This document shows positions 1,313-41,595 of a stretch of 45,988 bases of DNA, in pieces; position 1 is the stretch's first letter, and each line of letters opens with the position of its first letter. The translations under genes were made by a program, and so were the position numbers. Below the pieces are notes generated by a model that saw nothing but the letters and a program-made list of their open reading frames with translations, ran no database searches and had not been told where the DNA came from. The stretch is from IMG/VR virus record IMGVR_UViG_3300045988_087605, positions 1-45,988 of that record; one strand, 5' to 3'. This stretch comes from a virus.

Positions 1313-1320
1313 TACCTTTG
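1313..1320 (+). promoter_or_regulatory. Bacteroidota-type -7 box (TAccTTTG) ahead of the lysis cassette
   Basis: Matches TAnnTTTG 30 nt upstream of ATG 1351. Preceded by a 7-bp hairpin cggtaag/cttaccg at 1283-1310. Confidence 0.4.
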
Positions 1321-3250: not shown

Positions 3251-3259
3251 TAATTCCAT

Positions 3260-3341
3260 GTTAAAACTGTTAATGCACGTTAAAGTATTTGCCACTTATA
3301 AATATATCCGTATATTTGCAGCGTAGAAGTTATTACTAACG
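3260..3341 (+). promoter_or_regulatory. early-type promoter/leader cassette, orphan copy (no ATG ORF behind it)
   Basis: GTTAAAAC 3260-3267, GTTAAT 3269-3274, GTTAAA 3279-3284. -33 TTTG 3288-3291; -7 TAtaTTTG 3311-3318 (19-nt spacer). Leader ATTACTAAC 3332-3340. Confidence 0.5.
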
Positions 3342-3495
3342 TCTTTAACAGCGGTTATTGATTTTCATAGAATTATCTTTGTGGAAGATTTGTATCACAT
3401 TTTATCTTAAACTGTCGGTATGCGAATATAGACAGTTTTAATTAGAACATTTTCACTAACTATATATATTGGGTTTTGTCATAATTACATTTTTC

Positions 3496-3527
3496 CCCCT
3501 CCGCTTGTGAAAGTAGAGGGGTTTTTT
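3496..3527 (+). terminator. rho-independent terminator closing the orphan transcription unit
   Basis: cccctc (3496-3501) / gagggg (3516-3521) stem followed by T6 (3522-3527). Confidence 0.5.
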
Positions 3528-3554
3528 ATTACCTTATCCGAACACACCTCAAAT

Positions 3555-3644
3555 GTTAAATAAGTGTTAAATATTAAACTTGCGCTTTGATATTTAAAAT
3601 ATCTCCTTAACTTTGCAAGGTCAAAAGGAAACGAATTACTAACA
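3555..3644 (+). promoter_or_regulatory. early-type promoter/leader cassette
   Basis: GTTAAA 3555-3560 and 3566-3571. -33 TTTG 3586-3589; -7 TAacTTTG 3608-3615. Leader ATTACTAACA 3635-3644; ATG at 3660. Confidence 0.6.
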
Positions 3645-3659
3645 ATAAAACTTAGAATT

Positions 3660-3905
3660 ATGGAAGAAAAGGAATTTATTTATTGCTTGACCGGAGAGAT
3701 TAACGTATTAGGCACTGTCAAGGCTAAGACAATAAAAAGTGCTATGAAACTTGTGGCGGCTATTCAGAGAACGAGAATATTGAATGATCCGGAAAGAAAA
3801 ACAATCTTTTGGAGTGTTTCACGTGCTGATCGTCCGTTTAAGTTAGGTAATATTGTGTATACAATATGCTATCCCGATGGGTCTATTCGTTCACATGTAT
3901 GCTAA
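3660..3905 (+). CDS. hypothetical early protein (81 aa), paralogue of 6120..6371
   Basis: First gene behind a cassette. 'VKAKTIKSAMKLVAAIQR' aligns with 'VEAKTIRGALTQIKKKQR' of 6120..6371. Confidence 0.65.
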   Translation: MEEKEFIYCLTGEINVLGTVKAKTIKSAMKLVAAIQRTRILNDPERKTIFWSVSRADRPFKLGNIVYTICYPDGSIRSHVC

Positions 3906-3923
3906 CAATAAAAATTTAGAGTT

Positions 3924-4175
3924 ATGGAATTAGTAAAATTCAGAGAGGCAAAGAGTATAATGGAAGAAAAAGCTTTTTTGCAAAAAAAGCTTGAAAGGCT
4001 TCAGTCCGGCTGTCTTAGTAGAACAGAATTATATTTCAGTTCGGGAGATATCTTAACATTTTCGGAATGTGATGGCGAATTTTATGAAGGTTTGTGCAAA
4101 TACTTGGAAAAGTATATAAGAGAATCTATTGAAAATCGTATTGGCTATCTTGAATCTAAATTTGATAAACTATGA
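3924..4175 (+). CDS. hypothetical protein (83 aa)
   Basis: Track ORF, tightly packed, with an ATGA-type overlap to the next gene. Confidence 0.55.
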   Translation: MELVKFREAKSIMEEKAFLQKKLERLQSGCLSRTELYFSSGDILTFSECDGEFYEGLCKYLEKYIRESIENRIGYLESKFDKL

Positions 4176-4453
4176 TACGATCATTTAGTAAGTCGGGTTC
4201 AACATCTATGCTGACAGATAAGGAAAAAGCGTTTAACCGCTACTGCCTAACTAACAAGGAAGTTTCATACAACTTAATGCGTATAGAAATGGCAGTTGTT
4301 CAAATGTCGTATTACGGCAACCGTTCATCGGACGTTACTCTAACAACCGATAGTTCTGAGGTTTTGGATGCGATTTATACAGTCCTAACAAACGAAGGGT
4401 TTAAATATTCCTTCAATTTACCTAATAAAGTATTAACCATAAGTATTTTTTAA
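4172..4453 (+). CDS. hypothetical protein (93 aa)
   Basis: Track ORF; its start overlaps the upstream stop. Confidence 0.55.
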   Translation: MIRSFSKSGSTSMLTDKEKAFNRYCLTNKEVSYNLMRIEMAVVQMSYYGNRSSDVTLTTDSSEVLDAIYTVLTNEGFKYSFNLPNKVLTISIF

Positions 4454-4470
4454 TTTAAAATTTAATCAAA

Positions 4471-4887
4471 ATGAAAGAAGAAGTAAAATTGTTCAGAGCG
4501 TTAATTATTGTTTTTGTGTTGCTTGTGTTCACCTTCGTGTTAACTTCATGCAGTGATGATAGCGACAATGTGTATCAAACAGAATATTCTATTGATGTTC
4601 CGGAGTGGCAAACTGTTTATGTGAATGGTGAGGTTACAACATCTATATCACCATACGTTTGGGAACATGTGGACTTATCAGATAAATGTGTTAGAGTATT
4701 CTCCGCAGGGCATGTTAGTTATCACAAGGTTACAAGGGTGTCACGTGATGATTTAGGCTTTACCGTTTATTCAATAGAAAGTAGCAATAACGAACGGTTT
4801 GCATACAATAAGAATAAAGGTATATTGCAATATTGGTGCACAAGAAATGGCATTGAAACCGTTGTTGTTTATCGTGAATTAAAGTAA
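4471..4887 (+). CDS. putative lipoprotein, possibly surface-exposed
   Basis: Signal peptide 'MKEEVKLFRALIIVFVLLVFTFVLTS|C' with lipobox L-T-S-C27, followed by the acidic stretch 'SDDSDN'. Confidence 0.6.
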   Translation: MKEEVKLFRALIIVFVLLVFTFVLTSCSDDSDNVYQTEYSIDVPEWQTVYVNGEVTTSISPYVWEHVDLSDKCVRVFSAGHVSYHKVTRVSRDDLGFTVYSIESSNNERFAYNKNKGILQYWCTRNGIETVVVYRELK

Positions 4888-4903
4888 GTTTCATTTTACC
4901 CTC

Positions 4904-4925
4904 ACCCGGTGGAGGTTAACCGGGT
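4904..4925 (+). other. intercistronic hairpin
   Basis: acccggt-ggaggtta-accgggt (7-bp stem) with no U-tract. Confidence 0.35.
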
Positions 4926-4933
4926 TATTAAGT

Positions 4934-5134
4934 ATGAAAGTAATTGTTAGATTTAAAGAAGAAGAAGAAATTACCAATTTTGAAGCTAAATACGGTTTAT
5001 ATGTAGAGAACCATAACGGACAAAGATATATCATTGAGTTCGATAATATGGGAAATTTGGTGGTTAATAGTCCGAAAGGTGCGTTATTGGTCAAACCACA
5101 ATGCAGTAATAAAATATCAATTAGACCCGAATAA
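4934..5134 (+). CDS. hypothetical protein (66 aa)
   Basis: Track ORF; its stop lies 1 nt before ATG 5136. Confidence 0.5.
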   Translation: MKVIVRFKEEEEITNFEAKYGLYVENHNGQRYIIEFDNMGNLVVNSPKGALLVKPQCSNKISIRPE

Positions 5135-5135
5135 C

Positions 5136-5972
5136 ATGAAAGAGATAAACGAAACTCAATTACAGCTATCGACTAAGGGAAAAAGACTTCCCGATATGAT
5201 AAAGCAGGCGAACGGCATACACGAACTTGTTAAGCAGAAACTTTCTGAGTATAATTCAATAGAGTATACCGATGATAATATAAAGGTAGCAAAAGCCGAT
5301 AGAGCCACTTTAAACAAGGCGAAAAAGGGACTTAACGACAGCCGTATAGAACTGGAAAAGGCTTGGATGAAACCATTCAACGAACTAAAGGATGTTGTTA
5401 ACGAAACTTGTAAGCTGATCGGTGAAGCTTCTTCACGAATAGATAGTAAGATAAAAGAAACGGAGGAAAAGGAGAAGCAAAAGAAACTGGATCAAATAAG
5501 GGAGTATTTCGAGGAACACAATGAAAACCTTATATTGTTTGATTTTGCTTTCCGTCCGGAGTGGCTTAATAAGACCAAAGCACTTTCAGTTGTGAAAATG
5601 GAGATAGACGAATTATTTAAAACGGTTGATGATGATCTTAACAGACTGAAAGAGCATTTTGCGGGAGAGGCGTTTTATATTCCGGTTATCGACAAATATA
5701 CGTCTACACTCGATTATAACAAGTCGTTCGATTATGGAAATCACCTAAAAGAAGCTGCAATACAAGCCGCAAACAGACAGTTTGAACAGAAGGCGACAGA
5801 TAACACGACTCAGCAACAAAAGCCCGAAATTAAGCCTCAAAACGAGCCAAAGACAAACGAAGAAGAAGTTTATATAAGAGGATTTAAAGTCCATGTAACG
5901 AGAAAGCAGGCTTTTGCGCTTGCTGAGTTTATGAATAGCCACAATATAAAGTTTGAAAGTATATCAATATAG
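5136..5972 (+). CDS. DUF1351-like phage protein (278 aa)
   Basis: 'TDDNIKVAKADRATLNKAKKGLNDSRIELEKAWMKPFNELKD' followed by a coiled coil resembles DUF1351. The track start at 5034 overlaps the previous gene, so ATG 5136 is preferred. Confidence 0.5.
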   Translation: MKEINETQLQLSTKGKRLPDMIKQANGIHELVKQKLSEYNSIEYTDDNIKVAKADRATLNKAKKGLNDSRIELEKAWMKPFNELKDVVNETCKLIGEASSRIDSKIKETEEKEKQKKLDQIREYFEEHNENLILFDFAFRPEWLNKTKALSVVKMEIDELFKTVDDDLNRLKEHFAGEAFYIPVIDKYTSTLDYNKSFDYGNHLKEAAIQAANRQFEQKATDNTTQQQKPEIKPQNEPKTNEEEVYIRGFKVHVTRKQAFALAEFMNSHNIKFESISI

Positions 5973-5974
5973 AC

Positions 5975-6004
5975 GGTAGCCCAATTGGGCTACCTTTTTG
6001 TTTT
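5975..6004 (+). terminator. rho-independent terminator
   Basis: ggtagccc-aatt-gggctacc followed by T5. Confidence 0.75.
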
Positions 6005-6014
6005 GTTTGCAATG

Positions 6015-6103
6015 GTTAATCTATTGTTAAAACTCAAAGTTTCGATTGAATTTTCAAATAGTGTGCTTATATTTGCAGTGTTGAAAGAAACAAAGTAGTA
6101 ACA
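6015..6103 (+). promoter_or_regulatory. early-type promoter/leader cassette
   Basis: GTTAAT 6015-6020, GTTAAAAC 6026-6033. -33-like ATTG 6045-6048; -7 TAtaTTTG 6068-6075. Leader AGTAGTAACA 6094-6103; ATG at 6120. Confidence 0.6.
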
Positions 6104-6119
6104 ATTAAAAATTAGAATT

Positions 6120-6371
6120 ATGAAACTTAAAAAATGGTATTTTAGGAACGATATTAAAAGTCCTTATAATTTCGTTGAAGCTAAAACAATTAGAGGCGCA
6201 TTGACTCAGATAAAGAAAAAACAACGTGTGTTTGCTGAGACTTTTTTGGAAACAACATTTTGTAGTATCTTCGAAGATGATATAAAACTATCAAACATGC
6301 GTTGTATATTAGCTACGTATGTCTCGCCGTACGGAGATATAAAACAAGATATATTGGAATTACGAATTTAG
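6120..6371 (+). CDS. hypothetical early protein (83 aa), paralogue of 3660..3905
   Basis: See 3660..3905. Both are the first gene behind a cassette. Confidence 0.65.
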   Translation: MKLKKWYFRNDIKSPYNFVEAKTIRGALTQIKKKQRVFAETFLETTFCSIFEDDIKLSNMRCILATYVSPYGDIKQDILELRI

Positions 6372-7539: not shown

Positions 7540-7543
7540 TTTA

Positions 7544-7576
7544 AAAGGGATGTGCAACGCTTTGCCATCCCTTTTT
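7544..7576 (+). terminator. rho-independent terminator
   Basis: aaagggatg / catcccttt 9-bp stem with inner gcaa/ttgc pairing, followed by a T-run. Confidence 0.75.
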
Positions 7577-7688
7577 AGTTTCTATATATCACATACCGAA
7601 ACTATCGTTGCTCTATGAAACAAATCTAACAATATGTAGTAACAAGTATGAAAGTGATACAAAGGTAGGCTTTTGATACTATCCAATG

Positions 7689-7794
7689 GTTAAAACGAGT
7701 CTTTTTATATTTCATTAACAATAAAATTAAAGAATTCCTTTGCATATTTAAAGTTTATCCTTAACTTTGCGACATCAAAAAATAAGTAGTAACA
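7689..7794 (+). promoter_or_regulatory. early-type promoter/leader cassette
   Basis: GTTAAAAC 7689-7696. -33 TTTG 7739-7742; -7 TAacTTTG 7762-7769. Leader AGTAGTAACA 7785-7794; ATG at 7810. Confidence 0.55.
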
Positions 7795-7809
7795 TTAAAA
7801 ACGAATAAT

Positions 7810-8205
7810 ATGCAGATTAAAAAAGATCGAAATTACAAATTGCTTGTGCAGGTTTGCAAGAATAAAGGTATTCCATTCTCCTACGAAAAACTTGTTTTGT
7901 TTTTGAATAAGTACATTTATGAACATGAAGAAGATTCAGTATTTGGATATACAATATCTGATATTGATTTTTCAATCGCTAAACATATATCGGTTGATAT
8001 TTGCGGAATGCTTACATTAAGCAATATTATTTGCCAATTAACTTGCATCGGTGCGGGAGATTGCCCGAATTGCGGAGGTTTACTCAGATTGATAGAATCT
8101 TACCCCAAATTTAGCAAACAGTATTGCGATCGTGATTGTGAGCCGGAGAGAGAAGAAGAAAATGTATACGAATGTTTAACATGTGGAAAGGAGGTTATTT
8201 TATGA
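7810..8205 (+). CDS. hypothetical protein with C-terminal zinc ribbon (131 aa)
   Basis: 'CPNCGG' ... 'CLTCG' pair. Confidence 0.55.
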   Translation: MQIKKDRNYKLLVQVCKNKGIPFSYEKLVLFLNKYIYEHEEDSVFGYTISDIDFSIAKHISVDICGMLTLSNIICQLTCIGAGDCPNCGGLLRLIESYPKFSKQYCDRDCEPEREEENVYECLTCGKEVIL

Positions 8206-8453
8206 ATATTGAAAACACAATGATCCGAATCAATGATGCGATTATAAGCGCACGTATTAACGGCAAAAAGATTACGAAAAAGGATATTGCAGCGTTGTTG
8301 TGGAAGGATTCAAAGCAAAGAACGCAGGCGGTAAACATGTCTGCCTTGTGTAACCACAAAACCCAAACGATAAAAATAGAGTGGGTGAAAGAGATATGCG
8401 AGGCTACCGGAGTCGATGCGAATTTCCTATTTAATATTAACCCTAAAAAATAA
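8202..8453 (+). CDS. putative HTH DNA-binding protein (83 aa)
   Basis: ATG 8202 overlaps the upstream stop (ATGA). 'ITKKDIAALLWKDSKQRTQAVNMSA' looks HTH-like. The track start at 8172 lies inside the previous gene. Confidence 0.45.
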   Translation: MNIENTMIRINDAIISARINGKKITKKDIAALLWKDSKQRTQAVNMSALCNHKTQTIKIEWVKEICEATGVDANFLFNINPKK

Positions 8454-11556: not shown

Positions 11557-11672
11557 TACAGCACGATTCTGTGCAGTCTGTCTATACCTAATTATCAGAT
11601 ATTTGCAAAACAAAGAATGTTAAATCATAAAAAAATAGATGTTTTTCCATTGCAGTATATAATAATAAACAC

Positions 11673-11680
11673 TATATTTG
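11673..11680 (+). promoter_or_regulatory. -7 promoter box TAtaTTTG
   Basis: Lies 21 nt upstream of ATG 11702. A GTTAAA box sits at 11619-11624. Confidence 0.45.
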
Positions 11681-11701
11681 CAGAGTAAAATTTAAAACAG
11701 T

Positions 11702-11911
11702 ATGTATATGAAAGTAGAAAACTTAGTTAAGATTAAGAGTTATGCCGATTTAAAGGGAGTTACAGTACCTTGGATATGGAGGCTTATTAAGAGAGGAAAA
11801 TTAGAGTATATTCAAATTGATGGTGCATGCTTCATTGAGTTAACGGATGAAGAACTGAAAAAGTATGCGGAGTACAAAGAACGGATAAGTTCATTTTTGA
11901 ATAGCAAATAG
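11702..11911 (+). CDS. putative HTH DNA-binding protein (excisionase/MerR-like fold)
   Basis: 'KSYADLKGVTVPWIWRLIKRGKLEYIQIDG'. The start could instead be ATG 11708. Confidence 0.45.
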   Translation: MYMKVENLVKIKSYADLKGVTVPWIWRLIKRGKLEYIQIDGACFIELTDEELKKYAEYKERISSFLNSK

Positions 11912-15616: not shown

Positions 15617-15628
15617 CAAAAGTTAAAT

Positions 15629-15661
15629 AACGGGTATTTCGGAAAGATTTACCCGTTTTTA
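15629..15661 (+). terminator. rho-independent terminator
   Basis: aacgggta / tacccgtt 8-bp stem followed by a T-run. Confidence 0.7.
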
Positions 15662-15721
15662 TTTGCGTGAATTTAAAGTTTTGATTTAATTTGCAGCGTA
15701 GAAATAAAAACAGTAGTAACA
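15662..15721 (+). promoter_or_regulatory. early-type promoter/leader cassette
   Basis: -33 TTTG 15662-15665; -7-like TTaaTTTG 15686-15693. Leader AGTAGTAACA 15712-15721; ATG at 15737. Confidence 0.5.
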
Positions 15722-15736
15722 TAAAATCAATTAATT

Positions 15737-16096
15737 ATGCAGGAAATTAGCAAAAAATTAAGTGAACAGTCAGTAGGAACGGTTTTGGATAGACCGGAGT
15801 ATAGAAAAGAGCTTTCTATTTATTGGGATGGCTTAAAAGAGCAACGGAAAAAGGCTTCGTTCGAAATATTGCATCACGGAGGTATTCCTAAAAGAATAAC
15901 AATAGATAGAGTCGGTAAAATGGATACGGATCAACTTATATCAGAATTTAAGCTGATACTTGACAGAAAGAGTGAGTTGCCTGCAAGTCTGAGGTACTTT
16001 ATTTCGGATGTGTGCGGAAAGGTATTTATCAGTTGGTTTACAAAAGTGATTGAAGATGAAGCAAAAGAAAATAACGATCCCCGGGAAGGTAACTAA
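15737..16096 (+). CDS. hypothetical protein (119 aa)
   Basis: First gene behind a cassette. Confidence 0.6.
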   Translation: MQEISKKLSEQSVGTVLDRPEYRKELSIYWDGLKEQRKKASFEILHHGGIPKRITIDRVGKMDTDQLISEFKLILDRKSELPASLRYFISDVCGKVFISWFTKVIEDEAKENNDPREGN

Positions 16097-18751: not shown

Positions 18752-18777
18752 GGGGATGTATATTGCATCCCCTTTTT
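18752..18777 (+). terminator. rho-independent terminator
   Basis: ggggatg / catcccc stem followed by T5. Confidence 0.7.
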
Positions 18778-18779
18778 GT

Positions 18780-18869
18780 GTTAAATACATGTTAAAACTT
18801 AAACTTTAGATTGCAATATTAAATCTTATCCTTATATTTGCAGTGTCAAAAGGAAACAAATTACTAACA
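18780..18869 (+). promoter_or_regulatory. early-type promoter/leader cassette
   Basis: GTTAAA 18780-18785, GTTAAAAC 18791-18798. ATTG 18810-18813; -7 TAtaTTTG 18833-18840. Leader ATTACTAACA 18860-18869; ATG at 18886. Confidence 0.6.
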
Positions 18870-18885
18870 TTTAAAAATAAATATT

Positions 18886-19119
18886 ATGGCAACAATGACA
18901 TCAAAACAATTTTGTGAGAGAATGTATGGAATGTATCACTTACTTGGCGGTGGTGATTCCGGATGTGCTCACTGTTCAGACAATAGGTTTTCTTGCGGAT
19001 ATAGAAAGGAGAATACAGTTTTAACCAATGCACTTATGAAGGCGTGTGATAATCACAAAGTTCCTTATAAGATCGAGGCAAACGAATATTGTATTAATTT
19101 CGTAGTAGAATTTAAATAA
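18886..19119 (+). CDS. small Cys-rich protein (77 aa)
   Basis: 'GCAHCSDNRFSCGY'. First gene behind a cassette. Confidence 0.6.
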   Translation: MATMTSKQFCERMYGMYHLLGGGDSGCAHCSDNRFSCGYRKENTVLTNALMKACDNHKVPYKIEANEYCINFVVEFK

Positions 19120-21403: not shown

Positions 21404-21411
21404 TATTTTTG
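21404..21411 (+). promoter_or_regulatory. -7 box TAttTTTG (candidate late promoter)
   Basis: Lies upstream of terS. No GTTAAA boxes and no TA[G/C]TAACA leader. Confidence 0.35.
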
Positions 21412-23626: not shown

Positions 23627-23634
23627 TATATTTG
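23627..23634 (+). promoter_or_regulatory. -7 box TAtaTTTG
   Basis: Lies 38 nt upstream of ATG 23673. Confidence 0.45.
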
Positions 23635-30669: not shown

Positions 30670-31228
30670 AGCTATAATTAGACCAAATGCGGCACTTTTC
30701 GATAAAACGATAGCCGATGTACAGGTAAGCCTAACAAAATCGCTTAAATGGCTTAATTTCGCTTTTGGGAACGTGGTTAAATTGGTAGAGAGAAACGAGA
30801 GGGGGAAATTTGTTACCCCATCAGTGTATTTTAAGGGAAATGATTATTTGCGCTTAGAGCCTGACGATAAGCGGGGTAACGTTTGCTTTTTCTACATGCA
30901 CGACTCACAAGATTATGAAGGGGGAGACTCTTTGTCTGGCTTTGGCGATCTGAGGGGGACGGTTAGCATTATCTTTTGGTTCGATACCCGTAAAATCCCG
31001 GGTGCGGAATACTACAACGTGGAGTTTGTAAAGTCCGAAATACTAAGAGCATTAACGCATGAACTTTACCTGCCATCGGGTGATATACAGGTGAGGAAGA
31101 TATTTCATGACGCCAATAATGTATACAAGGAGTTTTCTATTCAAAAGACGGATAATCAATACTACGTTTATCCCTATGCTTGTTTGCGGTTTGAGTGTGA
31201 TATTCATTGCGAAGAAGGGTGTTATTAA
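30659..31228 (+). CDS. virion morphogenesis protein, function unknown (189 aa)
   Basis: Overlaps the upstream gene and is followed by a terminator. Confidence 0.6.
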   Translation: MNDRAIIRPNAALFDKTIADVQVSLTKSLKWLNFAFGNVVKLVERNERGKFVTPSVYFKGNDYLRLEPDDKRGNVCFFYMHDSQDYEGGDSLSGFGDLRGTVSIIFWFDTRKIPGAEYYNVEFVKSEILRALTHELYLPSGDIQVRKIFHDANNVYKEFSIQKTDNQYYVYPYACLRFECDIHCEEGCY

Positions 31229-31249
31229 AGGGGGAGTTTCCCCCTTTTT
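31227..31249 (+). terminator. rho-independent terminator
   Basis: aaaggggg-agttt-cccccttt stem plus T-run. Confidence 0.7.
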
Positions 31250-31251
31250 GT

Positions 31252-31339
31252 GTTAAATATATGTTAAAACTTAAAGATTCGATTGCAATATTAAATAAAC
31301 TACTTATATTTGCAATGTCAAACAACGAAAGTAGTAACA
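31252..31339 (+). promoter_or_regulatory. early-type promoter/leader cassette located inside the late region
   Basis: GTTAAA 31252-31257, GTTAAAAC 31263-31270. ATTG 31282-31285; -7 TAtaTTTG 31305-31312. Leader AGTAGTAACA 31330-31339; ATG at 31356. Roughly 80% identical by eye to the cassette at 18780-18885. Confidence 0.6.
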
Positions 31340-31355
31340 ATTAAAAATAAAGATT

Positions 31356-31538
31356 ATGACAGCAAGTTTATTTATTCAGAGAACAGTTGAAAAATTTATT
31401 ATGATGGAATTTGTTAAGGGAAACATGGATACCAAGGAACAAGTTGATACGATGATAGAAGTTATCAAAAGAAAGTTAGACTTTTCGCATGATGAAGCAT
31501 GTGATTTTATAAGAAAAGCGATCGGAATAAACGAATAA
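31356..31538 (+). CDS. hypothetical small protein (60 aa)
   Basis: First gene behind a cassette. Confidence 0.55.
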   Translation: MTASLFIQRTVEKFIMMEFVKGNMDTKEQVDTMIEVIKRKLDFSHDEACDFIRKAIGINE

Positions 31539-31554
31539 CTTTAATTATTGACAG

Positions 31555-31572
31555 GTGGGGATAATACCCCAC
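31555..31572 (+). other. intercistronic hairpin
   Basis: gtgggg-ataata-ccccac. Confidence 0.4.
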
Positions 31573-31589
31573 TTCCTAAAATAAAAGCC

Positions 31590-32690
31590 ATGAAAGTAGA
31601 TAAGTATCTAAAGAGCCACATATATTTTGAGAGACTTAAAAGTGATATAATAACCGTGGGAAACCACACAAATTTTAAAGGTATGTTTAACGAGGAAAGA
31701 ATTGAGAATTTAGAAAAGAGAATTTCAAGAATTGAACAGATTCAAAATGCAGAATGTAATTCTGCGCAAATGGAAAGAAGGGTTCAACGTGCTTTGATTG
31801 ATTCCAACAACGAAGTAGTAAGAAGAATTTTTGATGATGTGTCCGTTAGTTCTGTATATGGTGTAGATGTATTTTCACCGAAAACCGGAGATATTCAAGT
31901 ACGTAATGCGGTGTTTAGTGGAGAGGTATTCAAACAAGCGGTGTCTAACGGTATATCCGATTATTTAAAGAAGGTAGAAGAGGATAAGACGGAAGCGCCT
32001 ACTATTGCAAGCGTGTTAGAAAAAGCACGAAGGAATGCGATGGCGATACAGGAACTTTTAAAACGAACCGAATGCTCGAACGTGAACGAAGTAATAAGCA
32101 AGTTTGAACTTGGCGTTTCTTTTAAAAAGATGTATGATGAAGAATCACGCAAAAGAAAAGAGCTTGCACAACAAAGAGAACTTCTAAATCGTGATTTAAG
32201 CAATCAAATAGCTAAACTTTCTGATAAAAACCAATCTTTGATGCAAAGTGAAAAAAGCCTTATTTGCAAACTTGCTGATAAAGAATCGGAATTAAAGAGA
32301 GTGGAAGAACTTTCAGACGGTAGATATAAGGAAGTTGCTTGGCTTCGTGGTGAACTAAAAAAGCAGGAACAGGAAGTAGAAAAACTAAAAGACGAAAACA
32401 AGCACATTAAATCGGTTAATGCGAAAAGGGTAGTAAGAACGGTTGATGCCCTTTGTCGGGAAGAGGATGCGGTAGTAGGATATTCAGATTTGAAAAAGAG
32501 ATGTGAAGAATTGGAGAGGGATAAAAAATACTTGGATATGGCAAACACTGCACTCTTGCAAGAAGATCGTAAAATTAGAGAGCATTTGAACGAAAGAATT
32601 AAGAAGCTAAAACAGAGGCTTAAAAAATCGTCTATCCGTTACAGAGACTTAAAAGAAAGCATTTCGCATAATGGTTTGAAATCAGTATAA
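31590..32690 (+). CDS. long coiled-coil protein (366 aa)
   Basis: ATG 31590 lies downstream of the hairpin (the track uses TTG 31548). Heptad-rich K/E sequence. Confidence 0.6.
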   Translation: MKVDKYLKSHIYFERLKSDIITVGNHTNFKGMFNEERIENLEKRISRIEQIQNAECNSAQMERRVQRALIDSNNEVVRRIFDDVSVSSVYGVDVFSPKTGDIQVRNAVFSGEVFKQAVSNGISDYLKKVEEDKTEAPTIASVLEKARRNAMAIQELLKRTECSNVNEVISKFELGVSFKKMYDEESRKRKELAQQRELLNRDLSNQIAKLSDKNQSLMQSEKSLICKLADKESELKRVEELSDGRYKEVAWLRGELKKQEQEVEKLKDENKHIKSVNAKRVVRTVDALCREEDAVVGYSDLKKRCEELERDKKYLDMANTALLQEDRKIREHLNERIKKLKQRLKKSSIRYRDLKESISHNGLKSV

Positions 32691-32698
32691 CAATAACA

Positions 32699-32717
32699 GC
32701 CGGGATAATATCCCGGC
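32699..32717 (+). other. intercistronic hairpin
   Basis: gccggga-taata-tcccggc. Confidence 0.4.
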
Positions 32718-32732
32718 ACAATATTAAAATAT

Positions 32733-32993
32733 ATGTTGAAAGTAGATATAAGAAATAGGATATTAAAACCAAAGGTTGGTGAGATTATAACCGTAATAGG
32801 AGATATATATACCACGGTAGCGGAAACTATACCGGACGAAAACGGGAGATGTGAGTCATGTGCTTTCAATGATGCAACAAAGGTAGGAGGTGATTGCGGT
32901 GATTTTGTGAGTTGCTCTAAACTTAACCGTAAAGATAATGTTATGTTTAAACTAATAGAAAGAAAGAGAACTAAGGAGGTTGAAAATGAATAG
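32733..32993 (+). CDS. four-Cys module protein, copy A
   Basis: 'KVGEIITV...GRCESCAFNDATKVGGDCGDFVSCSKLNRKDNVMFKLIE'. Confidence 0.6.
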   Translation: MLKVDIRNRILKPKVGEIITVIGDIYTTVAETIPDENGRCESCAFNDATKVGGDCGDFVSCSKLNRKDNVMFKLIERKRTKEVENE

Positions 32994-33237
32994 AATATCT
33001 TTGTCGGATAGAGATAGATTCGTACCGAAAGAGGGGGAAATATTTTTTGCAGAAGTTCCGGGAAAGGGAATAGACCGGAAGGTAGAGGCGGTATTATTGA
33101 AAGACAATAGCGGTTGTAAGAATTGCGCATTTTTTAAAGGAGAATTAAAATACTTGTGTATGCAAATAAACTGCCTTAACAGAGGAAGGCAATTAATTTT
33201 TAGGAGGGTTAGAAAATGGGAAGATTTAAAAGAGTAA
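32980..33237 (+). CDS. four-Cys module protein, copy B
   Basis: 'KEGEIFFA...SGCKNCAFFKGELKYLCMQINCLNRGRQLIFRRVR'. Confidence 0.6.
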   Translation: MKMNRISLSDRDRFVPKEGEIFFAEVPGKGIDRKVEAVLLKDNSGCKNCAFFKGELKYLCMQINCLNRGRQLIFRRVRKWEDLKE

Positions 33238-33434
33238 AACTATATGATACCTTCACGATAGATCACCCGATAACAGGAGAAGTTATCAGAGTTCAAGCAA
33301 TGGAAGGAAACAATGTAATATCATGTCGGGAGTGCTTATTCAGACAAAAGGAGTTTAGAAAGATATGTCCACTTATGCGATGTGTCGACATGTCTACGGG
33401 AAAATGTCAAACGTATAAACAAGTGAAGTTATGA
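33216..33434 (+). CDS. four-Cys module protein, copy C
   Basis: 'ITGEVIRV...ISCRECLFRQKEFRKICPLMRCVDMSTGKCQTYKQVK'. Confidence 0.6.
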   Translation: MGRFKRVKLYDTFTIDHPITGEVIRVQAMEGNNVISCRECLFRQKEFRKICPLMRCVDMSTGKCQTYKQVKL

Positions 33435-33886
33435 AGAAATTAGATTTATCAATGATACCGATTGACCTAAAGGTAGGCGAGGAAATGGAGGTATTAACGC
33501 CCAAAGGGGATAAAGTTACAGTAAGGTGTGTTGAGGATAAAAGAAAAGACATGTGTGAAATTTGCTTTTTCGGAGAAAACGGTTTGCACATCTGTTCATA
33601 CGTTAAATGTAGCGAGAGAGAGCGTGAAACAGGTGATAGTGTAAGCTATCAAGAAGTAAAAAGGGAGAGGCTGTATACAAAAATAGAGGCAGGAAAAGAA
33701 TATAAGGTAGGGGATATTGTTAGGCTATCCGGAAAATATGAATACGCTAAAGTGGTTGAGTCGAACAAATGTAACGGGTGTGTATTTCTGGATAGGTGGT
33801 GCAATGTAATATGCGGAGAGAGGGAAAGAAGTGACGGAAAATCAATCGTACTACTGCCGTGTAACAAGAAAGGAGAATTATTATGA
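33431..33886 (+). CDS. four-Cys module protein with two tandem modules (D1 and D2)
   Basis: 'KVGEEMEV...DMCEICFFGENGLHICSYVKCSERERETGDSVSYQEVK' and 'KVGDIVRL...NKCNGCVFLDRWCNVICGERERSDGKSIVLL'. Confidence 0.65.
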   Translation: MKKLDLSMIPIDLKVGEEMEVLTPKGDKVTVRCVEDKRKDMCEICFFGENGLHICSYVKCSERERETGDSVSYQEVKRERLYTKIEAGKEYKVGDIVRLSGKYEYAKVVESNKCNGCVFLDRWCNVICGERERSDGKSIVLLPCNKKGELL

Positions 33887-34025
33887 AAGAAGTGGATGTG
33901 CCTTCCGAAAGGGAGATTTAGAAAGCATGTGTAAAGCATATCTATGCATGAGGGAAAGAACATTAGATTGTTTAGTGTTTAAGGTAGTAAAGGAGAAATT
34001 CAAACGAAATGTTACAGAGTTTTAA
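33831..34025 (+). CDS. degenerate or truncated four-Cys module (copy E); start uncertain
   Basis: 'SGCAFRKGDLESMCKAYLCMRERTLDCLVFKVVK'. The only start is a GTG lying 56 nt inside the previous gene. Confidence 0.35.
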   Translation: MTENQSYYCRVTRKENYYERSGCAFRKGDLESMCKAYLCMRERTLDCLVFKVVKEKFKRNVTEF

Positions 34026-34057
34026 AAGTTAAAGTATTAATTTAAATGTGTTGACTT

Positions 34058-34402
34058 ATGAAAGAAGAAGTTGTTTTAATGCTCTCTGAGCTAAGATTGC
34101 AAATTGATGATACAATTAGTCGTCTTAAGAAAGAAAGCGCCTTAGAAGGCAAAGAAATTATGTCTACGTTGGAAGATTGTGGCTTGATTAAGGTATGCGA
34201 TTATTTAATCTACCCGCAAGCCTTTTTAGAGTGGTGTTTTAGTCGTGGATTTTTGGAGACGGAAGGTGAAGTATTTACTGTCGGAGGGAATCCCTGGATA
34301 GGGAATAAATACGTTTCAAAAAACGATCTAATTAACTTGGATGAAAACGGACGTGTAACCGTTCACCCTTCGTTGTTATACGTCTATTTTAAAACGCGGT
34401 AA
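34058..34402 (+). CDS. hypothetical protein (114 aa), paralogue of 34405..34785
   Basis: 'DYLIYPQAFLEWCFSRGFLETEGEVFTV' aligns with 'DFLFPHQTLDFMMWADKMGYIRHKEDNLFIV'. Confidence 0.55.
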   Translation: MKEEVVLMLSELRLQIDDTISRLKKESALEGKEIMSTLEDCGLIKVCDYLIYPQAFLEWCFSRGFLETEGEVFTVGGNPWIGNKYVSKNDLINLDENGRVTVHPSLLYVYFKTR

Positions 34403-34404
34403 GA

Positions 34405-34785
34405 ATGAATAATACAAAGGAATTTGAGGAATACTGCAAAGATGTGAGTGCCTCCGAAAAGTTAGATAAATATATTGCCGATATGGTAGAACACGATGAA
34501 AGGGAGAGACTAAAGTCGCTTTTAGATATTTGTGAGAAAAGCAAGGATAGTAGATACGATCTGCCTATCGACTGCAAAACATATCTTCCTTTGAGAGATT
34601 TTTTGTTTCCACATCAAACACTTGATTTTATGATGTGGGCTGATAAGATGGGGTATATTCGGCATAAAGAGGATAACCTTTTCATTGTTTCGTCTATGAT
34701 TAAAAGGTGGGATAGCGTTGACTCTCTTAAAGTTATGCCGGAGATTGTGGAAGCGTTTGTTTTATACAAAAAACATGTAGGTTAG
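34405..34785 (+). CDS. hypothetical protein (126 aa), paralogue of 34058..34402
   Basis: See 34058..34402. Confidence 0.55.
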   Translation: MNNTKEFEEYCKDVSASEKLDKYIADMVEHDERERLKSLLDICEKSKDSRYDLPIDCKTYLPLRDFLFPHQTLDFMMWADKMGYIRHKEDNLFIVSSMIKRWDSVDSLKVMPEIVEAFVLYKKHVG

Positions 34786-34805
34786 GAGTCTTCGGACTCC
34801 TTTTC
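34784..34805 (+). terminator. rho-independent terminator with UUCG tetraloop
   Basis: aggagtc-ttcg-gactcct followed by tttt. Confidence 0.75.
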
Positions 34806-34870: not shown

Positions 34871-34878
34871 TATCTTTG
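34871..34878 (+). promoter_or_regulatory. -7 box TAtcTTTG (a second candidate, TActTTTG, lies at 34908-34915)
   Basis: Lies upstream of ATG 34926 and restarts the tail operon after the island. Confidence 0.4.
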
Positions 34879-39388: not shown

Positions 39389-41562
39389 TGAACGTTAAAG
39401 ATTTGCGATTTAAATTGGGGGGTGTAGAAATACATCCCCACTATTCAGAGCTAAAACGGAAGTTTGGCAAAGAGAATCAACAGGAGTTTTTCAGAGAGTC
39501 GATAGAGGGGAGTTTAACACTAATCGGGGCGGACTACCTTCTTGTTAAAAATGCGAGTATTGAGGATATTTTGTACTTGCAAATAGAGCAGAAGGATAAA
39601 GGGCAGCTATCAACGCAGTATCAAGTAATATTTGAGGGTTATTTCAGTAAGACAGATTGTGAGATAGACAGTGATAACCGGACGTGCAAAGTCAAGATAA
39701 GCCCACGAGATGAATATACCGATATAATGAAGGGTATTGAGAACAAATACGATCTTATCAAGCTTGCACCCGCATTGTCTCAAATAGGGATATCCAAGCG
39801 TCCGATTGTGCAAGTTTATATTGCGGGTGCATCTACAATATCGAACTATCTTGCGGGTACTCACTACGAAACTGAGGTTTTCAACGTTGTAACGGATAAC
39901 AAGGAGCTAACGGATAAGAATTTCTTTGCCTTCTTTGCTGCATACAACGAAATCGAAGTAAAGGCAGTACCTTATCAGTTCTTTAACGGGAAGTACTACG
40001 GAACTAATGGAACGTACACTAAATTGGATGGCAATTTCTCAATAAAATGGACTCTAAGCAAAGGTTTAAACATTGGTTTCCTTCACTTGGAAAATAAAGA
40101 GGGAACTATACTGTACCGATCAGATAAAATCAATTGGAGCGATAAAAGTTACTACTACATAGACGTTTCTGAAATAACATTCACAAGAATAGTAGATGAT
40201 CCGACACTTCCTAAAAAGTTTGGCGGAAACACTGTTCTTTTGCAAAAGCTATTTCAAAGAATGTTGCTTAACCTTCCGGAGTTGGACGGTAAACCTACCG
40301 GGAAACTATCATCAGAGGACGTTTACCCTACCAATAGTAACTACATGTATGCCGCACCATTAAAGGGGAACTACTTTTATACGTCTACGAAGGTTCAGAA
40401 CGAGCCGACAGAGTATGGTGTAAACGATGAAGGCAAGTATTTTACCGATAACTTCGTTCCGGCTGTGGCGGGTGCAGGAAAGCTGTATCCGGTATGCCGT
40501 TCACGATGGGGGAATATGTCGATTTGGTTCGAGTTTGATTTGTCCTATGCGCCATTGGAGGAAAGATCGAGAAAGGAGTATGTTTTAAGGGACTCGTTCG
40601 CCATACATGACGCTATTAGGGCGCTTATTAAGCAAATTGATCCCACTTTGACGCACGAAGCTACGGAGGAATACAGTAAGTTTTTGTATGCCGCCAATAA
40701 CCCTATTTCCGGTGCACATTTTAAGGTGTTCATCACACAGAAAAGCAACATCCTAAAGGGTGAGTATGACCGCCCGGCAAAGAAGGCGGAAACAACCCTC
40801 AGCGATATAATGAAGATGTTGCGTGACACGATGAAACTATATTGGTTTATAGATGGCGATAAGTTTAGGATAGAACATATTTCTTACTTCATGAATGGCG
40901 GAAGTTATACCGGTAGCGGGACGGTCGGCATAGACTTAACAAAGCTTAGATATGCAAAATCGGGTCAGTTAATGACGTGGAAAACTAACACGGTCAAATA
41001 TGATAAAACCGATCTGCCTTCACGCTTTGAATTTTCTTGGATGGACGATACCACAAATACGTTTGCAGGTTTTCCGATTGACGTTAAATCAAACTACGTG
41101 CAGGAGGGAAAGAAAGAAGAAGTAAGGGTATCTAACTTTTCGTCCGATGTAGATTATATGCTACTATCACCGGGTGACTTTTCACAGGATGGTTTTGCCC
41201 TGCTGGGAGCTACGCAGATAGGCGGTAAATGGAAACTACCGTTTGTTACGTTCAACTTGGTAGACAAGAACAATAAGAAGTACACCGTAAACCCCCAAAA
41301 CGGCTACATGTCGTTCTTGCACCTCGTTAAATACTACATGCACGATATGCCAGCCTCAGAGATAGAGCAGGGAGGCGATCAGACGATAAGAGTGAGAGGA
41401 ATAAAGCGGAGTATGACGCAAGATTTATCTTTCACATACGACACCACACCAAACCCCGTGCAACTGATAACAACGGATATAGGCAACGGGAAACCGATAA
41501 CTATGACTGAGGATCTAACAACTCGCCAAATAACCGTATCTTTATCTTACACCCCCTTATAA
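39388..41562 (+). CDS. distal tail (Dit-like) / baseplate protein (putative)
   Basis: 724 aa; it is the first gene after the tape-measure gene. Confidence 0.45.
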   Translation: MNVKDLRFKLGGVEIHPHYSELKRKFGKENQQEFFRESIEGSLTLIGADYLLVKNASIEDILYLQIEQKDKGQLSTQYQVIFEGYFSKTDCEIDSDNRTCKVKISPRDEYTDIMKGIENKYDLIKLAPALSQIGISKRPIVQVYIAGASTISNYLAGTHYETEVFNVVTDNKELTDKNFFAFFAAYNEIEVKAVPYQFFNGKYYGTNGTYTKLDGNFSIKWTLSKGLNIGFLHLENKEGTILYRSDKINWSDKSYYYIDVSEITFTRIVDDPTLPKKFGGNTVLLQKLFQRMLLNLPELDGKPTGKLSSEDVYPTNSNYMYAAPLKGNYFYTSTKVQNEPTEYGVNDEGKYFTDNFVPAVAGAGKLYPVCRSRWGNMSIWFEFDLSYAPLEERSRKEYVLRDSFAIHDAIRALIKQIDPTLTHEATEEYSKFLYAANNPISGAHFKVFITQKSNILKGEYDRPAKKAETTLSDIMKMLRDTMKLYWFIDGDKFRIEHISYFMNGGSYTGSGTVGIDLTKLRYAKSGQLMTWKTNTVKYDKTDLPSRFEFSWMDDTTNTFAGFPIDVKSNYVQEGKKEEVRVSNFSSDVDYMLLSPGDFSQDGFALLGATQIGGKWKLPFVTFNLVDKNNKKYTVNPQNGYMSFLHLVKYYMHDMPASEIEQGGDQTIRVRGIKRSMTQDLSFTYDTTPNPVQLITTDIGNGKPITMTEDLTTRQITVSLSYTPL

Positions 41563-41580
41563 TAGGGGGTGTTTTCTTTT
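41549..41580 (+). terminator. rho-independent terminator (the stop codon lies in the TATAAT loop)
   Basis: acacccccT-tataat-Agggggtgt 9-bp stem followed by tttctttt. Confidence 0.6.
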
Positions 41581-41587
41581 AAATTGC

Positions 41588-41595
41588 TATCTTTG
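41588..41595 (+). promoter_or_regulatory. -7 box TAtcTTTG ahead of the fibre gene
   Basis: Lies 26 nt upstream of ATG 41622. Confidence 0.4.

Follow-up and report, generated by a model that had tools for sequence, protein, structure and literature searches.

Seven repeated promoter cassettes with helically phased GTTAAA boxes in a Bacteroides fragilis phage: probable strong promoters of the host RNA polymerase

Introduction

Promoters read by the primary sigma factor of the Bacteroidota reportedly carry a -33 TTTG and a -7 TAnnTTTG element, as described by Bayley et al. in 2000 and by Vingadassalom et al. in 2005. Upstream of the core, the best-known stimulating sequences are the UP elements of Escherichia coli rrnB P1, sites for the RNA polymerase alpha subunit's C-terminal domain (alpha-CTD) near -42, -52 and -62 that stimulate transcription without extra factors. 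We know of no demonstration that the alpha-CTD contacts UP elements in Bacteroidota. Repeated promoters are also a feature of T4-type phages, whose PeSL (promoter-early stem-loop) cassettes were reportedly described by Arbiol et al. in 2010. In a PeSL cassette, a terminator hairpin is combined with a conserved early promoter; the repeated cassettes lie on either side of small, variable genes and act as joints for recombination.

The closest described system is a promoter of Bacteroides phage B124-14, which Whitaker, Shepherd and Sonnenburg are said to have defined in Cell in 2017 as P_BfP1 / P_BfP1E6. E6 and RBS8 are engineered leader variants of it. The B124-14 promoter is a standard part for strong constitutive expression in Bacteroides (PMC10746243; PMC11554821; PMC7591464), and it is strong and constitutive in uninfected B. 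thetaiotaomicron and other species (PMC10746243; PMC11554821). A 2025 preprint in which operator sites were placed in this promoter indicates that its "UP elements" and -7 consensus were avoided (bioRxiv 10.1101/2025.03.18.644028). This and related papers describe the B. fragilis phage promoter as having its own A/T-rich ribosome binding region (bioRxiv 10.1101/2025.03.18.644028; PMC7591464; PMC11554821). Bacterial promoters in general have phased A/T tracts upstream of them (PMC12641261).

Here we describe a family of seven promoter-plus-leader cassettes in the genome of a related phage. The window, meaning the whole stretch of DNA that was analysed, comprises an entire virus record (45,988 bases) and has direct repeats at its termini. 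Its ends are cut within the tail fibre gene, and the plus strand carries all genes. The virus is a complete siphovirus of the B40-8/B124-14/Barc2635 type of Bacteroides fragilis. A 10-kb stretch is 93-97% identical to the group of B40-8, B124-14, Barc2635 and vB_BfrS_23, with 94% identity to B124-14 over 10 kb.

The cassette repeat

The window holds 13 intergenic promoter candidates, namely seven paralogous cassettes of about 110 bases each, found on the plus strand and in intergenic positions only, and six others. The initial annotation had reported seven copies of one promoter architecture and proposed a comparison with shuffled sequence, and both the count and the places are borne out. An nhmmer profile made from the seven copies and run on the window gives exactly seven strong matches (55-75 bits, E 1e-15 to 1e-22), followed by matches with E values of 0.2-0.4. 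When the window was shuffled 50 times with its dinucleotides preserved, the highest score was 11.7 bits. The repetition is thus confirmed as real and highly non-random. Lone GTTAAA hexamers are slightly enriched in the window (82 against an expected 62.9 +/- 7.8). Pairs of the form GTTAA-N6-GTTAA, 11 nt apart, occur four times on the plus strand against an expected 0.24, and all four lie inside cassettes (3555, 6015, 18780 and 31252).

The features are listed below, with gaps counted from each box to the -7 box.

3256-3359, plus strand: cassette A (nhmmer 57.8 bits); boxes GTTAAA 3260, GTTAAT 3269 and GTTAAA 3279 (gaps 45, 36 and 26 nt); -33 TTG 3289; -7 box TATATTTG 3311-3318; leader TACTAAC 3334.
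3553-3663, plus strand: cassette B (71.3 bits), behind terminator 3496-3527; boxes GTTAAA 3555 and 3566, ATTAAA 3573 (gaps 47, 36 and 29 nt); -33 TTG 3587; -7 box TAACTTTG 3608-3615; leader 3637; ATG 3660.
6014-6122, plus strand: cassette C (75.4 bits), behind terminator 5975-5994, heading the thymidylate synthase operon; boxes GTTAAT 6015 and GTTAAA 6026; -33 TTG 6046; -7 box TATATTTG 6068-6075; leader 6096; ATG 6120.
7707-7813, plus strand: cassette D (55.6 bits), about 110 nt behind terminator 7543-7575, heading the Erf recombination operon; lone GTTAAA 7689 and ATTAAA 7726 (gaps 67 and 30 nt); -33 TTG 7740; -7 box TAACTTTG 7762-7769; leader 7787; ATG 7810.
15622-15740, plus strand: cassette E (57.7 bits, nhmmer match 15634-15740), with a terminator hairpin at about 15629-15657 within its upstream region; GTTAAA 15622 (gap 58 nt); -33 TTG 15663; variant -7 box TTAATTTG 15686-15693; leader 15714; ATG 15737.
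18776-18889, plus strand: cassette F, the copy singled out by the initial annotation (75.5 bits), behind terminator 18752-18772; boxes GTTAAA 18780 and 18791, CTTAAA 18798, and ATTAAA 18818 in the spacer (gaps 47, 36, 29 and 9 nt); -33 TTG 18811; -7 box TATATTTG 18833-18840; leader TACTAAC 18862; ATG 18886.
31248-31358, plus strand: cassette G (67.9 bits), behind terminator 31227-31247; boxes GTTAAA 31252 and 31263, CTTAAA 31270; -33 TTG 31283; -7 box TATATTTG 31305-31312; leader 31332; ATG 31356.
11650-11701, plus strand: putative non-cassette promoter (nhmmer E 0.2-0.4 only) heading gene 11702, Rha and replication genes; one GTTAAA at 11619 (gap 48 nt); -33 TTG 11650; -7 box TATATTTGC 11673.
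1313-1320, plus strand: box-less late-type -7 element TACCTTTG, before the lysis genes.
21404-21411, plus strand: box-less -7 element TATTTTTG, before small gene 21486 and terminase.
23627-23634, plus strand: box-less -7 element TATATTTG, before the head genes.
34871-34878, plus strand: box-less -7 element TATCTTTG, before the tail genes and after terminator 34784-34801.
41588-41595, plus strand: box-less -7 element TATCTTTG, before the tail fibre gene and after terminator 41549-41572.

In the consensus, which takes the initial base of the -7 box as its reference point, GTTAAA boxes start at -53 and -42, a (C/A)TTAAA box at -35 and the TTG at about -22, and the spacer holds a further TTAAA with its first T at -14. 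The 3' half consists of TAnnTTTGCA followed by GTCAAAAGGAAAC, a kTAsTAACA element, an A-rich stretch and ATTATG. The -7 TAnnTTTG is exact in 6/7 cassettes, and across all seven the -33 TTG stands 18-20 nt from the -7 box. These sequence features support reading the cassettes as promoters of the Bacteroidota -33/-7 type. Gaps from GTTAAA to the -7 box are 26, 36, 45-48, 58 or 67 nt in the phage as a whole, and gaps of 47 and 36 nt are common to cassettes B, C, F and G. Cassettes D and E (2/7) have no paired boxes and keep the rest of the cassette.

Several details of the architecture first proposed for these copies need adjustment. The order of -33 element, 19-nt spacer, -7 box and leader is present in all of them, with a spacing of 18-20 nt and the -7 variant TTAATTTG in the copy at 15662. 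A spacing of about 11 nt between GTTAAA boxes holds for the pairs at 3555, 18780 and 31252, and the first box of the pair at 6015 is GTTAAT. One to three GTTAAA boxes had been assigned to every copy; the sole GTTAAA of the copy at 15662 (15622) lies upstream of the terminator hairpin, and the copy at 7689 does have one GTTAAA, at a distance of 67 nt from the -7 box. The cassettes had also been said to sit usually right after an intrinsic terminator. This is the case for five of the seven, since cassette A has none before it and that of cassette D is about 110 nt away. The putative promoter at 11650-11680 was absent from the initial list.

Some 190 nt of non-coding sequence, with no ATG-initiated ORF of at least 30 amino acids, separate cassette A from the terminator at 3496-3527. 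A second TAnnTTTG lies downstream of this cassette, at 3374. The stretch 3320-3527, in tandem with cassette B before the presumed early operon, could encode a small non-coding RNA or represent a decayed gene. Between the terminator and cassette D (7576-7688), a leader-like GTAGTAACA at 7637 is followed by an ATG, and this interval looks like a remnant of another cassette or of a small gene.

Conservation of the module in related and distant phages

Related phages keep the repeat. Barc2635 has eight copies, B124-14 has seven, which are syntenic, and BF766P4 has seven. Syntenic copies are also kept in a more distant subgroup (BK649P1, BF486P1 and BF3-TP1). A comparison of 28 unique copies (cassettes B, C, F and G) shows almost no variation in the boxes, -33 element, spacer TTAAA and -7 box; the positions between these elements vary, and there are no insertions or deletions between boxes and core.

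The module extends far beyond this family. At least 118 viral stretches contain the exact three-box pattern GTTAA-N6-GTTAAA-N2-TTAAA-N22-30-TAnnTTTG. Of these loci, 30 have no DNA similarity to the phage family of the window and belong to low-GC (25-31%) phages, in which the module has the same spacing, stands behind a T-run and precedes an A-rich leader. Two complete distant phages of 31 kb carry two or three module promoters each and have only Erf and thymidylate synthase (ThyA) in common with the window, at 37-42% amino-acid identity. The first genes behind the cassettes of the distant phages encode no proteins similar to those of the window except Erf. At such divergence a neutral sequence would have been lost. 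In one distant low-GC phage (IMG/VR, 41,780 bases), doublets of the form GTTAAA-N5-GTTAAA stand on the minus strand at about 32412, 27893 and 26830, directly before terminator-like hairpins and not before core promoters.

Cassettes as mosaic joints

Three close relatives are 90-98% identical to the window upstream of and inside the cassettes. Right past the start codon, identity drops to 22-63% at C, at G and, in one relative (BF766P4), at F. Cassette G heads a variable island (31356-34785) situated between the head and tail genes, and Barc2635 and BK649P1 have an extra cassette (G2) within this island after G. In B124-14, cassette G has 98% identity to the window's cassette F and 85% to the window's own cassette G. 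Because phages with 90-98% identity elsewhere have non-homologous genes downstream of C and G (and of F in BF766P4), the cassettes flank variable gene slots, and they double as mosaic joints for gene exchange among related phages.

Two promoter classes and expression timing

None of the five late-type promoters (1313, 21404, 23627, 34871 and 41588) has GTTAAA boxes or a match to the profile. The initial annotation had assigned only a TAnnTTTG element to the promoters of the late, lysis and fibre regions and had proposed two promoter classes, and both points stand. Cassettes head early and DNA-metabolism units, and the box-less class is found at lysis, packaging, head, tail and fibre genes.

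Timing is taken from the literature on a relative. A single-cell study of Bf12P1, published in Nat Commun in 2026, reports for this close relative, which is about 89% similar to Barc2635, three temporal modules with two early, seven middle and five late putative promoters (PMC13139388). These promoters were defined through -33/-7 motifs, intergenic position and steps in read density, and the main text makes no mention of upstream boxes or of a cassette repeat (PMC13139388). The promoter classes of Bf12P1 match the two-class split of the window, and its early genes 16-20 would correspond, through the gene order of B124-14, to the window operon 3660-5972. This operon, headed by cassette B, would be the early module. 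On this mapping, the two early promoters would be cassettes A and B, which stand in tandem, and C, D, E, F, G, the promoter with its -7 box at 11673 and perhaps 21404 would be middle promoters. Since the gene-order mapping places A and B early and C to G middle, near-identical promoters appear to serve both early and middle units, and their sequence does not explain why.

GTTAAA boxes in host chromosomes

Single and double boxes are also found, at the same distances, in host chromosomes. The pattern GTTAAA-N22-52-TAnnTTTGC has 801 matches in 41 Bacteroidaceae genomes against 205 for the reversed pattern as control. Among the 150 matches listed of these 801, the gaps peak at 25, 36-38 and 45-49 nt with deep troughs between the peaks, and the GTTAAA boxes of the phage (gaps 26, 36, 45-48, 58 and 67 nt) all fall on the host helical phases. 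Double boxes were sought with 11-nt spacing only, as GTTAAA-N5-GTTAAA-N30-40-TAnnTTTG, in 121 Bacteroidaceae genomes. There are 31 matches and none in the reversed control, and in 31/31 the gap to the -7 box is 35-38 nt, though 30-40 nt was permitted. Ordinary chromosomal operons lie behind these double boxes. They encode an ABC transporter ATPase (in many genomes), SPFH and MATE proteins, a P-type ATPase, ArsR, MerR and a TonB-dependent receptor. An explicit description of this phased use of GTTAAA by the host was not found in the literature searched.

The operon of the orthologous ABC-transporter ATPase has its GTTAAA double box at a gap of 37 nt in many Bacteroidaceae (eight loci). A conserved palindrome-like CAGTGTACTAnTAAACTAnTACACTA lies directly 3' of its -7 box and is probably a repressor operator.

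In 80 non-redundant host promoters, A-tracts peak at about -9, -28, -39, -51 and -60, and these peaks coincide with the AAA of the phage boxes; the correlation between the phage and host A-profiles is moderate (r 0.33-0.39; random SD 0.13), and the gap histogram of the hexamer weighs more heavily. In one Bacteroides genome, the rRNA promoters repeat the layout of the phage promoters in plain A-tracts, including an A-rich block in the spacer, and have no GTTAAA. The phage version is therefore not a simple copy of the commonest host element.

The exact three-box module has no match in 401 Bacteroidota genomes. This result at first suggested a phage-only element with a phage factor, an idea that was dropped after the two-box and one-box matches in hosts.

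Start region and leader

The downstream half of the cassette has its own host counterparts. A 20-mer, TTTGCA-R-TGTCAAAAGGAAA, comprises the end of the -7 box and the putative start region and lies at 18836-18855 of the window and at equivalent places in the other cassettes. It is found exactly at more than 120 chromosomal places in Bacteroidota, including Prevotella, Alistipes, Paludibacteraceae and Flavobacterium. At 23 of 120 such places it stands 24-68 nt upstream of genes for tRNA-Glu, -Cys, -Ser or -Gln, in Alistipes, Paludibacteraceae and others. Other host copies precede genes for secreted proteins, a T6SS Hcp-like gene and mobile elements, and an Rfam search found no rRNA near 18 other matches. 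The 20-mer is rare in the genus Bacteroides, where 3/41 genomes have it at one mismatch or less. Full-text literature searches with 15-mers of the cassette and with the start-region motif returned nothing relevant.

An unrelated phage of B. uniformis, EMB2 (ON721385.1), has its own class of repeated promoters on the minus strand, with copies for example at about 29358, 29716, 5306, 2715 and 25133. The -7 box, start region and leader of these promoters are like those of the cassettes, but an upstream motif, GTTAAC-R-GAA...ACAACCTAT, takes the place of the -33 TTG. Because the upstream motif differs, a different factor is suggested to act at the EMB2 promoters. Since the downstream half of the cassette recurs at host promoters and in EMB2, it too is promoter and leader sequence of host type and not a phage-specific site.

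How the cassettes may work

We consider it likely that the seven cassettes are very strong promoters of the host RNA polymerase, with GTTAAA boxes of the UP type and no need for a phage protein. The present comparisons show the repetition, anatomy and conservation of the cassettes as well as the host phasing and the joints; promoter activity and expression timing are drawn from the literature on relatives. The host polymerase with its primary sigma factor would read all seven paralogous cassettes through a canonical Bacteroidota core of -33 TTG, a spacer of 18-20 nt and -7 TAnnTTTG. The GTTAAA/TTAAA boxes would form an upstream UP-type element, placed one helical turn apart on the same DNA face as in host promoters, and would most likely dock the C-terminal domains of the alpha subunit. 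Transcription would begin in the region GCA-R-TGTCAAAAGGAAA, which is held in common with host tRNA and other promoters and contains the predicted start site. The A-rich leader, with an A at -3, would suit translation that is independent of a Shine-Dalgarno sequence. Terminators and cassettes together would divide the early and middle genome into separately driven units, and the late genes would use the box-less promoter type, which has no good -33 element and presumably needs another factor. The conserved cassettes would also act as the joints at which related phages exchange downstream genes.

The UP-type reading is favoured because the boxes keep a fixed phase to the core, occur at many unrelated host operons and are conserved in distant phages. 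Phased A/T-rich blocks are fixed relative to the core, and the same element is found at the same positions in host promoters. Judged from these sequence comparisons, the boxes are best read as acting with the host polymerase itself.

The conserved G-T-T of the box is more sequence-specific than classical UP elements, and for this reason a sequence-specific protein would also fit. Such a protein could be a conserved host factor other than the alpha subunit, for example a MarA/Rob-like activator with two HTH motifs or a nucleoid protein, which the phage borrows. We regard this as unlikely. It would account for the specific hexamer, the strict 11-nt repeat and the strict distance of double boxes from the core in host operons; several of those operons are related to efflux or stress (ABC transporter, MATE, P-type ATPase, ArsR and MerR), and rRNA promoters are without GTTAAA. 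However, there are about 20 exact GTTAAA/TAnnTTTGC pairs per genome, in at least three helical phases, which better fits a general element linked to the polymerase. The AAA of the boxes matches the general A-tract phasing of host promoters, the element appears to work from Bacteroides to the hosts of low-GC Bacteroidota phages, and no candidate factor was found.

The initial annotation had instead proposed that the boxes are operators of a phage activator or repressor, with a small protein (such as 8172-8453 or 11702-11911) or Rha timing a regulon of cassettes, and this we now consider very unlikely. In its favour are direct repeats 11 nt apart at the position of a class I activator, with GTTAAA conserved and the bases in between variable. 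The restriction of the exact three-box module to phages when set against 401 host genomes, and the split of cassette and box-less promoters by gene function, also agree with it. Sites of a phage regulon would be confined to phages and conserved together with their regulator, but host chromosomal promoters carry single and double boxes at the same phased distances, and Erf and ThyA are all that the window has in common with the distant module-bearing phages, with no detectable candidate regulator among the shared proteins, a comparison that remote homologues may escape. Cassettes D and E retain the rest of the cassette without paired boxes. Because the earliest operon carries boxes before any phage protein exists, it cannot depend on a regulator made after infection, and the promoter of a relative is constitutive in uninfected cells (PMC10746243; PMC11554821). 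Searched against Pfam, 20 early and middle proteins gave no match to a sigma factor or a classical regulator; the search recognised Rha/ANT alone and no DNA-binding family in the proposed HTH proteins.

That the repetition mainly reflects recombination of mobile or exchangeable promoter-terminator modules like PeSL, with the upstream sequence hitch-hiking, is very unlikely as a full account: the F-like cassette G of B124-14, the loss of identity past the ATG and the eighth copy in Barc2635 speak for it, but hitch-hiking leaves unexplained why the columns between the boxes vary and the boxes do not, why the module is retained in phages with about 40% protein identity, and why it matches host phasing. 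Exchange is compatible with promoter function and is thus an added role of the cassettes, not an alternative to it.

Significance

Promoter elements of this kind are known and already in use. We tentatively suggest, as a possibility somewhat short of even, that GTTAAA, when it precedes the -7 box by about 25, 36-37, 47-48 and 58 nt, is a formally undescribed, sequence-specific upstream element of Bacteroidota promoters, either the consensus alpha site or the site of a global host factor, which host operons use and unrelated phages stack into promoters of maximal strength, and that in this phage family the same cassettes serve as joints. If this is true, GTTAAA at fixed helical phases together with a start region like that of tRNA promoters would be a usable design principle, and the phasing rule would hint at how the RNA polymerase of Bacteroidota reads upstream DNA. 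Promoters of this phage family are workhorse parts for the engineering of gut Bacteroides. For the phage itself, the analysis provides a transcription map with seven putative strong host-type promoters for early and middle genes, box-less promoters for late genes and cassettes as exchange joints. A search for a phage regulator of the GTTAAA boxes is no longer needed.

Comparison with known systems

The cassettes have the same core elements and the same 18-20 nt spacing as the primary-sigma promoters of Bacteroidota, and differ from them in an extra conserved upstream module, start region and leader. Like the UP elements of E. coli, the boxes are A/T-rich, lie upstream of the -35-equivalent and are spaced by about one helical turn on one face of the DNA. 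The unit of the cassette is the defined hexamer GTTAAA, whereas the E. coli elements consist of A- and T-tracts. P_BfP1 comes from the same phage family as the window cassettes, and B124-14 has seven syntenic cassettes; P_BfP1 is presumably one of them, with the GTTAAA boxes as its probable UP elements. The cassettes resemble PeSL in that the promoter is repeated and a terminator adjoins five of the seven copies, with one more within 110 nt. They also resemble it in the drop of identity past the ATG at C, G and F and in the exchange between the F and G paralogues, as seen with three relatives compared. The PeSL cassettes belong to another phage group and differ in sigma type and sequence. Unlike PeSL, the cassettes of the window follow the order terminator, promoter and conserved leader, with the leader fused to the start codon.
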